Assembly (NCBI GenBank): GCA_023250255.1
Contig: JAHFBB010000001.1
Span: 1 to 24,318, forward strand
Reading direction: 5' to 3'
Length of the DNA: 24,318 nt
Source of the DNA: Chloroflexota bacterium
GTDB lineage: Bacteria > Chloroflexota > Limnocylindria > QHBO01
Under the pieces are notes generated by a model. That model was not told where the DNA came from, ran no database searches, and saw nothing but the letters and a program-made list of their open reading frames with translations. The position numbers and the translations under genes were made by a program. Positions within the stretch are counted from its first letter, which is position 1, and each line of letters opens with the position of its first letter. Positions 8,462 through 17,510 of this stretch are shown piece after piece.

Positions 8462-9895
8462 CTAGGACGCGGGCGGACCCTCGGCTGTGGAGCCCAGGTA
8501 CCAGCCGAGCAGCGGAGTATCGGTCCCCAGGATACGGGCCATCTCGGCGCGAATCGCGTCGCGACGCGGAATGATCATGTAGTAGCGCAGCGGATCGACC
8601 GGCGGGTCCACGAAGTCGGGCCAGCCCAGGACCACCCGCTCCACTGATTCGCGGTCGATCACGGTGGCCAGCGCAGCCAGGTCGCCGGCCTGGCTGCGGG
8701 GCACGTCGGTCGAAACGGTTCGCCCGACCGCCTCCATCAGGGCGGGCAGGTCGATCAACAGGTTTGCGTTGCGGACCTTTGCCTGAAGCGCGAGCAGGAC
8801 TTCTTGCTGGCGTGCCGCCCTCCGGTAGTCGTTCTGGCCCACGATCGAACCGTCGGGCATGACCATGATGCCCTTGCGGCTGCGGGCGAAAGCCAGCGCG
8901 TGAACGCCGTCGTAGTGGGCACAGCCTGCCTCGAGGACGATGCCAACCTTCGGAGACCAGGTCGGTCCGCTGTAGGTCGGGTCCTCGAGCCGCCCCGGCA
9001 GGCAGAGGTCGACCCCGCCGAGGGCGTCGATCAGCGAGGCGAAGCCGAGCAGGTCGATCCAGGCAACCTGGTGGATGGTGATCCCCAGGTACAGGCCCAG
9101 GGCCTGGGACAGCGTCCGGGTCCCGCAATCGGTCCCCACCGGGAGGTCGGGGCACCAGAGCTGCGGATTGGCGTTCGCCGTGGCGGCAAGTTCGTTCACC
9201 TTCACCGGGAAAAAACCGTCGGGGTAGATCCTTCGGTCCGGCAGGGGCACGAAGCCGGTATCGCGGGGCACGGAGATCATCGCGGCGCTGTGGGTAACCG
9301 GATCCACCGAGACGACCATCATGGTATCGGTCAGTTCTTCCTGGCGGCCGGGGGCCGAGTCGTAGCCCAGAAGCAGGAAGTTGATGCGCTCGGTCCCGTC
9401 CCAACCGTACCCGTCCGGCTCGTCGTCCAGATGGCCGGCCACCGGGGTGGTCGGGCCGCCCTGTCCAAAGATGGTCGCCAGGGTGTGGTCGGCGGTGGTC
9501 AGAATGACACCGGCCCACAGGTGCGAGACCAGGGTCGCGGCCAGGAGCAGGATGATCACCGCCAGGTTGGCCATGCCCGGCTGTCGACGCGCGCTGAATC
9601 CGGCGTGACCGATGGCGAACAGGCGCCAACTGAGAAGGGCGAGGTCCAGGACGAGTACGCCGAGCAATACGCCGGGAGCAAGCAAGGCTCGCGCGAGGGT
9701 CGCCGATCCGGTCATCCAGCCGACGATTGCCAATCCCAACAGGACGAGCACGGGTAGCACCAGGATGAATGCCAGCCGGGGTCGACCGATGTACGCCTGG
9801 CCAAGACCGGGGATCAGGAACGAGAGGAGTGCGGCCAGGGCGGGTACCGGACCCCGTACGGGTCGGTGCGCCACCGGCAGCGCAGATTCAGACAT
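8462..9895 (-). CDS. LCP (LytR-CpsA-Psr) family glycopolymer transferase with a multi-TM N-terminal region (paralogue 1)
   Basis: N-terminal 'AALLSFLIPGLGQAY' and several TM segments. LCP domain motifs: LLLGYD, TDTMMVVSVD, ISVPRD, LIDALGGVD, AFARSRKG, DYRRAARQQ. Start placed at MSESAL (9895), downstream of a TATACT -10. Confidence 0.9.
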   Translation of the reverse strand: MSESALPVAHRPVRGPVPALAALLSFLIPGLGQAYIGRPRLAFILVLPVLVLLGLAIVGWMTGSATLARALLAPGVLLGVLVLDLALLSWRLFAIGHAGFSARRQPGMANLAVIILLLAATLVSHLWAGVILTTADHTLATIFGQGGPTTPVAGHLDDEPDGYGWDGTERINFLLLGYDSAPGRQEELTDTMMVVSVDPVTHSAAMISVPRDTGFVPLPDRRIYPDGFFPVKVNELAATANANPQLWCPDLPVGTDCGTRTLSQALGLYLGITIHQVAWIDLLGFASLIDALGGVDLCLPGRLEDPTYSGPTWSPKVGIVLEAGCAHYDGVHALAFARSRKGIMVMPDGSIVGQNDYRRAARQQEVLLALQAKVRNANLLIDLPALMEAVGRTVSTDVPRSQAGDLAALATVIDRESVERVVLGWPDFVDPPVDPLRYYMIIPRRDAIRAEMARILGTDTPLLGWYLGSTAEGPPAS

Positions 9896-9944
9896 CACGA
9901 ATTCGGACAACACCAAGCAAGGGGTGGAACGGGCGGGAGCCGCG

Positions 9945-9950
9945 AGTATA
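9945..9950 (-). promoter_or_regulatory. Putative -10 element TATACT for the LCP paralogue 1 gene
   Basis: AGTATA on the + strand reads TATACT on the - strand, about 50 nt upstream of the ATG at 9895. Confidence 0.55.
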
Positions 9951-10052
9951 GGGAAGGACGGCGTCCGGCTCAACTCCGTTGCGGGTGCGCACCGCCGAAC
10001 GGCACGATTCTTTGCGTCCGGTCCCCCCGCGAACCTAGACTAGCCCCGGCCC

Positions 10053-16102: not shown

Positions 16103-16111
16103 CAACACCGG

Positions 16112-16117
16112 TATCAT
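16112..16117 (+). promoter_or_regulatory. Putative -10 element TATCAT, 7 nt before the GTG of LCP paralogue 2 (leaderless-type)
   Basis: TATCAT-cgggcgc-GTG. The 7-nt spacer is the same as at rph. Confidence 0.65.
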
Positions 16118-16124
16118 CGGGCGC

Positions 16125-17510
16125 GTGGCACAGGAGATCGGCGACCGGCTGGCAACGCACCCCGACCGAGGGGAGGCGGTCGTTCAGGCACCCGTAGCGG
16201 CATTTCTGTCCTTTCTCCTGCCTGGGCTGGGGCAGGCCTACAACCGCCAATTCTGGCTCGCCGTCCTGCTCGGCCTGCCGCTGGCCATGACCATCGTCCT
16301 CGGTGTGCTTGCCGCCCAGAATGGGGCGGGCGTCGCCTCGCGGATTGTTGATGTCCGATTCCTGGAGGCGGTGATCGTCCTTGATCTGGCGCTTCTCGGA
16401 TGGCGCCTGGTCGCGATCATCCAGGCGCACCTGCGGCGCGGCTGGAGCGGGAAGGCGCACTGGACCTCGTGGATGACCGGCCTCTTGGTACTCGCCACGA
16501 TCGGGACGCATTTTGTCCCGGCCTGGTACGCCACCGCGACGATCGAGACCCTCACGGCGATCTCGCGCGGCGGTCCCGCGGGCAGCGGCCTGGTGGGCGA
16601 TTTCCACGACATCCTGGACCCGACCGAGGGCGGCGCGCCCGGCTCGATTTCCGGGGCTGGATCGGAGGGAATCACCAAGCGGCTGACCGTGCTGCTGGTT
16701 GGAATCGACTACATCCCGGCGCGCCCGTCAACCTTCCTGACCGACACCATGATCGTCGCCACCATCGATCCGTTGACCGGCATTGATCTGATCTCCATTC
16801 CTCGAGACACCTTCGGGACACCACTGGGCGACGGTCGGATCTACAACTCCAAGCTGAATGGCCTGCTGGCACGCGCACGACGCGAGCCGGGTAACTACCC
16901 GCTCGGCGGGCCGGAGACCCTGAAGGCCGCCGTTGGTGAGCTCATCGGTCTGAAGATCGACTACCTGGCGGCCATCCAGGTCCTGGGCTTCAAGGACGCG
17001 ATCGACGCCCTCGGCGGCGTCGATATCACCGTCAGTCGGGCGATTCACGACAACACCTACATTGATGAGTACGACCGACATACGGGCTTCAGCATCGAGC
17101 CCGGCGAATATCACCTGGATGGCCACACCGCAGTGGCCTATGCGCGCTCTCGCAAGGGAGTCGGCGACAGCGACTTCACCCGTGCCGCCCGGCAACAACA
17201 GCTCCTGGTCGCCCTGCTGCACCAGCTCACCGCCTCGAGCCTGCTCCTGAATCTGCCGAACCTGCTTGGCATCATCGGCGACTCGGTGGCCAGCGATGTC
17301 CCGCTCGAACTCCTGCCGAACCTGGCGCGAGCCCTCCAAGACGCTGACCCGTCGGCGATCGACCGCCTGGTCATCCAATACCCGCTGGCGCACAGCGACA
17401 CCCTGACCGATGGGACCTACATCCTGGTGCCGGACATTCCGGCAATCCAGGCGGCAGTCCATGAGATGTTGACCTTCCAACCGGGTGCGACGCCCCAGCC
17501 GGGCGACTAG
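16125..17510 (+). CDS. LCP family glycopolymer transferase with a multi-TM N-terminal region (paralogue 2)
   Basis: 'AAFLSFLLPGLGQAY' and TM helices. Motifs VLLVGID, TDTMIV, ISIPRD, SKLNG, AIDALGGVD, AYARSRKG, SDFTRAARQQ. Confidence 0.9.
   Translation: MAQEIGDRLATHPDRGEAVVQAPVAAFLSFLLPGLGQAYNRQFWLAVLLGLPLAMTIVLGVLAAQNGAGVASRIVDVRFLEAVIVLDLALLGWRLVAIIQAHLRRGWSGKAHWTSWMTGLLVLATIGTHFVPAWYATATIETLTAISRGGPAGSGLVGDFHDILDPTEGGAPGSISGAGSEGITKRLTVLLVGIDYIPARPSTFLTDTMIVATIDPLTGIDLISIPRDTFGTPLGDGRIYNSKLNGLLARARREPGNYPLGGPETLKAAVGELIGLKIDYLAAIQVLGFKDAIDALGGVDITVSRAIHDNTYIDEYDRHTGFSIEPGEYHLDGHTAVAYARSRKGVGDSDFTRAARQQQLLVALLHQLTASSLLLNLPNLLGIIGDSVASDVPLELLPNLARALQDADPSAIDRLVIQYPLAHSDTLTDGTYILVPDIPAIQAAVHEMLTFQPGATPQPGD

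Follow-up and report, generated by a model that had tools for sequence, protein, structure and literature searches.

The question raised by the locus described here is whether five neighbouring genes for cell envelope proteins form one coordinated system, or whether their adjacency is the product of a rearrangement. The window, i.e. the complete stretch of 24,318 nucleotides that was analysed, represents the entire longest contig (24.3 kb) of a metagenome-assembled genome (MAG) of Candidatus Limnocylindria, Chloroflexota, as judged from the public names of close homologs; this uncultured class is abundant in soil and freshwater. The block of interest comprises, in this order, LCP1(-), a GGDEF cyclase gene (+), a peptidase gene (+), a GH18 gene (+) and LCP2(+). 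As the original prediction had it, two LCP paralogues enclose a membrane diguanylate cyclase gene, divergent from LCP1, and two genes for secreted enzymes which share a C-terminal cassette, and all of these were recovered at the positions given for them. Hydropathy predicts a membrane or secreted location for the five products. We consider it probable that the block represents two separately conserved modules, made adjacent by a lineage-specific rearrangement in a compacted envelope gene neighbourhood, and that it is not one conserved system. The features on which this interpretation draws are as follows (aa, amino acids; ORF, open reading frame).

1264-2457, + strand: mreB (Pfam MreB_Mbl, 481 bits)
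2454-3287, + strand: mreC (Pfam MreC, 102 bits)
3288-3318: mreC/RNase PH intergenic region of 31 nt, the 'empty' ancestral site at which relatives hold the peptidase and GH18 genes (reading of the sequence and synteny maps)
8377-8453, + strand: tRNA-Pro(UGG) (ARAGORN; Rfam tRNA, 71 bits)
8462-9895, with the ORF extending to 9973, - strand: LCP1 (PF03816, TIGR00350)
10053-11426, + strand: membrane diguanylate cyclase (GGDEF, TIGR00254)
11433-11518, + strand: conserved upstream element of the peptidase gene (alignment with 58 other species)
11523-13025, + strand: secreted caspase-fold peptidase-like protein, 500 aa (AlphaFold (AF2) fold; invariant His and Cys)
12446-13047, + strand: cassette copy 1, 602 nt, coding for the C-terminal 193 residues and extending over 22 nt of 3′ flank (100% identical to 15501-16102)
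13102-16080, + strand: secreted GH18 protein, 992 aa (PF00704)
15501-16102, + strand: cassette copy 2 (perfect direct repeat of 12446-13047)
16125-17510 (likely GTG start), with an ORF from 16023 inside the cassette, + strand: LCP2 (PF03816, TIGR00350)

Conservation of the two gene pairs in relatives

The window genes were mapped in full in six relatives from other genera. A cyclase-centred tally added 40 further loci, giving 46 in all, while the LCP1/cyclase pair was scored over 59 loci, namely these 40 and a first set of 19. A peptidase-centred scan with one genome per species yielded 80 loci, 71 of which had enough upstream DNA for MreC to be counted, and GH18 was counted on 53. Some tallies of the first set and the count over 120 family genomes include unpublished genomes (G004, G015, G023, G052, G104 and G117), from which none of the fetched loci derive.

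Conservation of the neighbourhood had been set beforehand as the test of the predicted system, and it separated the block into two parts. The five-gene arrangement occurs in none of the 46 cyclase-centred and none of the 71 peptidase-centred loci, while LCP1 is divergent from and adjacent to the cyclase gene in 52/59 loci, and a GH18 gene is found ≤3 kb downstream of the peptidase gene in 51/53 loci. The reading under which the five genes constitute a single coordinated system, with the LCP proteins attaching a glycan, the cassette recruiting the hydrolases to it and the cyclase tuning the process via cyclic di-GMP (c-di-GMP), draws on the five envelope products, on the co-directional arrangement and close spacing of four of the genes (96 nt between cyclase and peptidase, ~76 nt between peptidase and GH18, and 44 nt between GH18 and LCP2), and on the conservation of the LCP1/cyclase pair. 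Furthermore, an LCP gene is located 2-12 kb from the peptidase-GH18 pair in two genomes of a sister family (f3; G034 and G036). The zero occurrences of the block count against this reading, however, as does the identity of the conserved partner of the pair, which is mreBC: in 68/71 loci mreC precedes the peptidase gene at a distance of ≤600 nt, and neither a cyclase nor an LCP gene is found beside the peptidase gene in any of the peptidase-centred loci.

The LCP1/cyclase unit is itself widespread. A single-copy cyclase ortholog is present in 106 of the 120 family genomes, and LCP1 is divergent from and adjacent to it in 36/40 cyclase-centred loci and in 16/19 loci of the first set (13/16 after removal of the unpublished G004, G015 and G023). 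A sigma-70-like promoter match (TTGAGC, 17 nt, TATACT) is located at 9973-9945(-), within the 5′ extension of the LCP1 ORF, and the ATG at 9895 is therefore favored as the LCP1 start codon, which leaves a divergent control region of 157 nt common to LCP1 and the cyclase gene. The fixed pairing of the two genes suggests that they share a control region. What follows the cyclase gene is variable: the slot between it and CGS contains a DUF3048 gene on the opposite strand in 22/40 loci and LCP2 in 22/40, with both present in some and neither in six. No peptidase or GH18 gene lies between the cyclase gene and LCP2 or CGS in any of the 46 loci.

Some further observations concern this slot and its flanking genes. 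In G017 the slot after the cyclase gene holds a gene for a VanY D-Ala-D-Ala carboxypeptidase with a Big_5 domain. In some long-contig assemblies LCP2 is broken up into several reading frames (L020 (G009:C6) 686434-687718, L114, L127 and L141), and in L114 the same is observed for LCP1; these represent either pseudogenes or indel errors of long-read assembly. Loss of DUF3048 through the insertion of the peptidase and GH18 genes was considered for the window genome but was not borne out, as a DUF3048 gene is present on contig C80 of the MAG.

Position of the peptidase and GH18 genes

In the six mapped relatives the gene order is GlgE, MreB, MreC, [peptidase, GH18], RNase PH, Ham1, (...), GT2, PpiC, MazG and tRNA-Pro, followed after 1.2-12 kb by LCP1(-), the cyclase gene (+), the variable slot, CGS, PucR and GlnA. 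The window preserves this order with a single difference, in that the peptidase and GH18 genes are situated between the cyclase gene and LCP2 and are gone from behind mreC. Since the relatives retain the mreBC position and the slot is occupied by these genes in 0/46 loci, the pair is taken to have moved by ~8 kb in this genome only.

An element of ~85 nt is found between mreC and the peptidase gene in 58 other species and aligns with the 96-nt region that precedes the peptidase gene in the window, suggesting that the pair carried its own upstream region along. The consensus over 59 species (L021-L100 and window 11433-11518) is GTTGCC..GCGCACATGGCCCCATCG..(variable)..CGGACCATCGGGGCATGGGC..TACGGT. 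It includes an inverted repeat, CATGGCCCC / GGGGCATG, and this helix is 77% paired with weak covariation. RNAalifold returned no structure for the alignment of the element, which together with the weak covariation means that it may equally be a DNA operator; it could be a promoter/operator or a leader RNA. No Rfam family reached its gathering score for the upstream region, nor did a limit of E ≤ 10 bring up a meaningful match, and a c-di-GMP or other riboswitch tying the hydrolase genes to the cyclase was rejected on this basis. That the pair retained its own upstream element on entering a slot of variable content, and that neither a c-di-GMP riboswitch nor another Rfam element was detected, are further points against a single coordinated system, which we regard as unlikely. 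The predicted coupling of the hydrolases to these LCP proteins or to c-di-GMP was not sustained, the new adjacency in one MAG being the only link found between them.

The MAG is highly fragmented, with 1.28 Mb in 252 contigs (median contig 4.3 kb; GC content ~68%; 81% complete), and the perfect repeat of 602 nt shared by the two genes is hard to resolve with short reads. The bracket could therefore be an assembly artefact, resulting from a chimeric contig or a mis-resolved repeat, and be absent from the cell. However, both new junctions (cyclase stop/peptidase leader and mreC/RNase PH) are situated outside the repeated DNA, and the repeat, as a simple A-R-B-R-C loop, can be traversed by one path only. 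Neither a second copy of the pair nor a variant contig was found in the rest of the MAG, none of its contigs shows the ancestral junctions, and a comparable 100% repeat is present in a genome of another genus assembled into four contigs (G021). A scan of metagenomes for an independent assembly of the new junction retrieved only relatives with ~60% identity. We regard an artefact as highly improbable, and the relocation of the pair is probably real.

The original prediction had also noted that the block begins 8 nt after tRNA-Pro, and this was confirmed by ARAGORN and Rfam, the distance being that from the end of the tRNA to the stop codon of LCP1. In five relatives the same tRNA has MazG on one side and the LCP1/cyclase unit on the other, and the unit is preceded there by variable extra DNA of 1.2-12 kb (L005, L008, L012, L014 and L020; the corresponding interval of the window is 8377-8461, with its 8 nt). 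The closeness of the tRNA in the window thus reflects compaction rather than insertion. Use of tRNA-Pro as an integration site was rejected, as the position of the tRNA relative to the LCP1/cyclase unit is conserved in the relatives and no integrase is encoded in the window. The 8-nt gap, together with an estimated genome size of ~1.6 Mb versus 1.7-3.0 Mb in relatives, suggests that the genome is streamlined.

Seven contigs (L021, L040, L076, L077, L090, L094 and L099) in MAGs named Pleomorphomonadaceae, Methylomirabilota, Dormiibacterota, Gemmatimonadales, Patescibacteria and Steroidobacteraceae carry a Limnocylindria-type peptidase homolog, with an mreBC or GH18 context in all except L090. 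In view of this Limnocylindria-type content under foreign MAG names, they are probably mis-binned.

The secreted peptidase-like and GH18 proteins

The protein encoded downstream of the cyclase gene consists of a signal peptide, a catalytic domain (residues 31-299), a Big_5 domain (308-409) and an SH3b/GW-like domain (412-490). Its closest homolog (P0002) is 75% identical. Residues 1-300 have no sequence match in Pfam, NCBIfam or the PDB. Only the comparison of folds, with an AF2 model built from 50 homologs (predicted local distance difference test score, pLDDT: 88), led to an identification. The fold matches (VIA) of residues 30-299 form a coherent set of caspase-hemoglobinase-fold enzymes, namely the SAVED-CHAT protein 8tl0 (Z 11.8), the DdvA CHAT protein 8rot (Z 10.7) and the gingipain RgpB (4ief; Z 10.1), followed by legumain and OaAEP1 (Z 9.2-9.5) and metacaspases (Z ~9), while Foldseek placed the model closest to gingipain R. 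The motif G95-H96-G97 follows the strand at residues 90-94 and A181-C182-Y183 that at 174-179, and both are invariant in 50/50 homologs. The protein thus displays the features that define clan CD, namely a caspase-hemoglobinase fold with a His and then a Cys after successive strands. None of the Pfam and NCBIfam models of the curated clan-CD families Peptidase_C25, C13, C14, C11 and CHAT matches the catalytic domain, and the protein can as such be assigned only at the level of clan and fold. On the strength of the model, 'protease' is a fair label for it at clan level. An antisense ORF at 11427-13322(-), with a length of 631 aa, was rejected as a gene, as its product matches no family and the + strand ORF is the gene.

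The second secreted protein was identified as a member of the GH18 family (PF00704; Bitscore: 103.7; cut-off: 29.6) and further contains fn3, SH3_3, FlgD_ig and Big_5 domains. The nearest solved structures of its GH18 domain are those of YdhD (3cz8; e-value: 3e-25), 4wiw and YaaH/SleL (4s3k/4s3j), and not those of chitinases. In its catalytic motif, DGVNLDFE, the essential D-x-E is retained and the middle Asp is replaced by Asn; YdhD likewise lacks that Asp. The enzyme is probably a peptidoglycan N-acetylglucosaminidase.

The shared C-terminal cassette

The two genes share a perfect direct repeat of 602 nt (12446-13047 and 15501-16102), which runs 22 nt beyond both stop codons. The encoded cassette combines a Big_5/CopC-like Ig domain, which matches CopC and domains of the S-layer protein SbsC at Z 12-13.6, and a terminal β domain of ~75 residues which, folded alone, was modelled with a pLDDT of 81. 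Thirteen of the 14 best fold matches of the latter are of the SH3b or GW type at modest scores (Z 5.1-6.4), and nearly all of these are known to bind the cell wall; they include AtlE R2ab (Z 6.4), a Listeria autolysin (Z 5.9), the InlB GW module (Z 5.6) and the lysostaphin SH3b domain (Z 5.4). In Pfam, weak matches to PF21540 (Choline_bind_4) were obtained for 4/24 repeat copies. The domain may be SH3b/GW-like, with moderate support. It constitutes an unannotated repeat family; six tandem copies are found in a 903-aa ORF of another genome (L145 (G012:C1) 732359-733906), and further proteins from this class carry the domain in triplicate.

The sharing of a module by the two enzymes is not restricted to the window. 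In G021 the peptidase and GH18 genes have their own 100% identical 3′ end of 835 nt, the module of which is ~31% identical in protein to the window cassette. Its copies are located as follows.

L004 (G021:C1) 154889-155723: G021 repeat, first copy
L004 (G021:C1) 157898-158732: G021 repeat, second copy

Across species, the C-termini of the peptidase and GH18 proteins are homologous in 41/48 species, with 25-99.6% identity, and the DNA identity of the paired 3′ ends ranges from 100%, 95% and 92% through ~80% and 72-78% to undetectable, a graded series as is expected from episodic gene conversion. The type of module varies between species and is matched inside each genome, with SLH paired with SLH, three CWB2 repeats in each protein, Big_5 with Big_5, or the same unnamed repeat in both. 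The types observed among the homologs comprise SLH, CWB2, PKD, Big_5 and an unnamed repeat which gives a spurious 'Crystallin' match (L045, L099, L029, L069 and L021). The matching of module types suggests that the ends of the two genes have recombined repeatedly, and this recombination appears to keep the cassettes alike. The predicted recruitment of the hydrolases through the shared C-terminal module is thereby well supported by comparison of the sequences, given the co-variation of module types per genome and the homology of the C-termini, and the cassette probably docks both enzymes on the wall.

The modules of the homologs bear on two of the alternatives. The SLH and CWB2 modules carried by peptidase and GH18 homologs lend some weight to the five genes acting as one system; in Firmicutes these modules bind wall polymers of the sort that LCP enzymes attach. 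The same modules argue against the two proteins being secreted feeding enzymes, a protease and a chitinase which would leave the cell's own wall untouched, as the SLH, CWB2 and SH3b/GW-like modules tether proteins to the wall of the producer. A feeding role would agree with the fact that GH18 is best known for its chitinases and that secreted polymer degraders often contain PKD, Big and fn3 domains. However, the closest solved GH18 structures, YdhD and YaaH(SleL), belong to spore-cortex enzymes, and the pair is fixed behind mreBC in 68/71 loci; we consider a feeding role very unlikely.

The LCP proteins and the diguanylate cyclase

Both LCP proteins score above the family cut-offs, LCP1 with 83.4 bits for PF03816 (cut-off: 24.6) and 69.6 for TIGR00350 (cut-off: 62.3), and LCP2 with 107.2 and 111.7 bits, respectively. 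They share 37% identity, have an N-terminal anchor with multiple transmembrane (TM) segments according to hydropathy, and retain the motifs (T/S)D(T/S), PRD, AR(S/M)RK and R..RQQ, with the conserved Asp and Arg residues for pyrophosphate binding and catalysis, in alignment to TagV (3nxh/6uf3). Both also align to TagU and Cps2A, and LCP2 matches TagV, TagU and Cps2A with e-values of 4e-20 to 1e-15. LCP1 and LCP2 are predicted to be membrane-anchored ligases which transfer polyprenol-pyrophosphate-linked glycopolymers to the wall.

The cyclase is recognized by its GGDEF domain (PF00990; Bitscore: 129; TIGR00254; Bitscore: 149), with an intact active site (YRYGGDEF) and the RxxD site RAVD five residues upstream. 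Hydropathy indicates ~6-7 TM segments ahead of the GGDEF domain. The Pfam MASE2 model (PF05230) does not match this N-terminal part at E ≤ 0.01, and a DUF4118 match is sub-threshold only; an ESM feature similarity of 0.93 to MASE2 clusters is a lead only. The cyclase is possibly AdrA-like in layout only. A single literature search on the pairing of LCP and diguanylate cyclase genes found no report and returned an unrelated review only.

Proposed explanation

We suggest that the locus combines two modules. The first would comprise LCP1 and the cyclase gene, divergently transcribed, followed by a variable slot which usually holds DUF3048 and/or LCP2, and the cyclase would respond to a cue from the membrane or envelope by producing c-di-GMP. 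The second would comprise the clan-CD-fold peptidase-like enzyme and the YdhD/SleL-type GH18 enzyme, elsewhere nearly always encoded behind mreBC. Their Big_5 and SH3b/GW-like cassette most likely sets both on one wall ligand, where the two enzymes may jointly remodel the cell's own sacculus, probably in the course of MreB-guided rod elongation. In the lineage of the window, the second module together with its own upstream element would have moved ~8 kb into the variable slot of the first.

Several points weigh against this explanation. All functions in the block are assigned by homology and fold. Clan-CD enzymes can act as transpeptidases instead of hydrolases, the GH18 protein has an Asn in place of the second Asp of DxxDxDxE, and the SH3b/GW match of the terminal domain is modest. 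The rearrangement is seen in a single fragmented MAG, and the relatives compared with their flanks reach up to ~64% identity. In addition, the relocated pair is co-directional and closely spaced with the cyclase gene and LCP2, at the distances given above, and a terminator scan found none in the block, although such a scan is uninformative at 68% GC. Read-through from the cyclase gene, and hence a new regulatory coupling, could occur.

A further-reaching version, about which we are doubtful, would extend the Limnocylindria rod-shape operon to mreB, mreC, the gene for a clan-CD peptidase-like protein of a new family and that for a SleL-like GH18 protein, the latter two enzymes serving as dedicated 'space-makers' for elongation. 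The cassette would then read the polymer installed by LCP1 and LCP2 under the influence of the cyclase, its two copies would be kept matched by gene conversion and swapped jointly (SLH, CWB2, PKD or Big_5 plus SH3b-like) whenever the wall polymer changes, and the ~85-nt element would serve as a regulatory switch of the peptidase gene. Literature searches on the Limnocylindria cell wall and on mreC in combination with GH18 retrieved nothing relevant.

Other features of the window

The original prediction had placed pseBCG and a polyprenol-P-mannose synthase gene in the window. PseB, PseC and PseG score above their respective NCBIfam cut-offs, confirming the former, while the latter could be assigned only as a generic GT2 protein.

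4637-5416: GT2, generic Dpm1/PpgS/AglJ-like (below every equivalog cut-off)

Positions 1-105 of the window overlap with the end of another contig of the MAG (G000:C99) in reverse orientation at 96% identity, and this overlap probably reflects a strain variant or a contig end that was left unjoined.

Significance and comparison with known systems

The apparent 'system' at this locus is a one-off juxtaposition, and it cautions against over-reading the gene order of a single MAG. The mreBC-linked, unannotated caspase-fold enzyme and its SleL-like GH18 neighbor, with wall-targeting modules that change in concert, provide a testable handle on wall growth and remodelling. An LCP gene fixed beside a membrane cyclase gene, furthermore, hints at second-messenger control of the attachment of wall glycopolymers.

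Among the known LCP proteins, TagT/U/V of Bacillus subtilis and Cps2A of Streptococcus pneumoniae resemble LCP1 and LCP2 in having a membrane anchor and an extracytoplasmic domain with the Asp/Arg motifs. Unlike these, LCP1 and LCP2 have 3-4 N-terminal TM helices and a conserved LPGLGQAY motif in place of one helix, and score below all equivalog cut-offs; one of them is encoded in a fixed, divergent arrangement with the gene for a GGDEF cyclase. The cyclase shares with the MASE2-GGDEF cyclase AdrA (DgcC) a multi-TM N-terminus and an intact GGDEF domain with an RxxD I-site, but it lacks a Pfam MASE2 match and has an LCP gene as its partner, not a cellulose synthase gene.

The peptidase-like protein resembles the clan-CD enzymes (gingipain, C25; legumain, C13; metacaspase/caspase, C14; CHAT) in its caspase-hemoglobinase fold (Z 9-11.8) and its His-Gly and Ala-Cys motifs, and differs from them in being secreted, in its wall-binding modules and in the location of its homologs' genes behind mreBC. 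Among solved structures, the GH18 protein is best matched by the Bacillus spore-cortex enzymes YdhD and YaaH/SleL, and it retains the catalytic D-x-E pair (DFE). The window protein is, however, far larger and carries fn3, SH3_3, FlgD_ig, Big_5 and SH3b-like domains instead of LysM; its host is not, to our knowledge, a spore former. Both enzymes follow the plan of modular autolysins, such as AtlE/Atl with their GW repeats and the SLH- and CWB2-bearing hydrolases, in which a catalytic domain is combined with exchangeable C-terminal wall-binding modules that determine the site of action. They depart from these in that two unrelated neighboring enzymes hold one and the same module, with up to 100% nucleotide identity, and exchange its type together.

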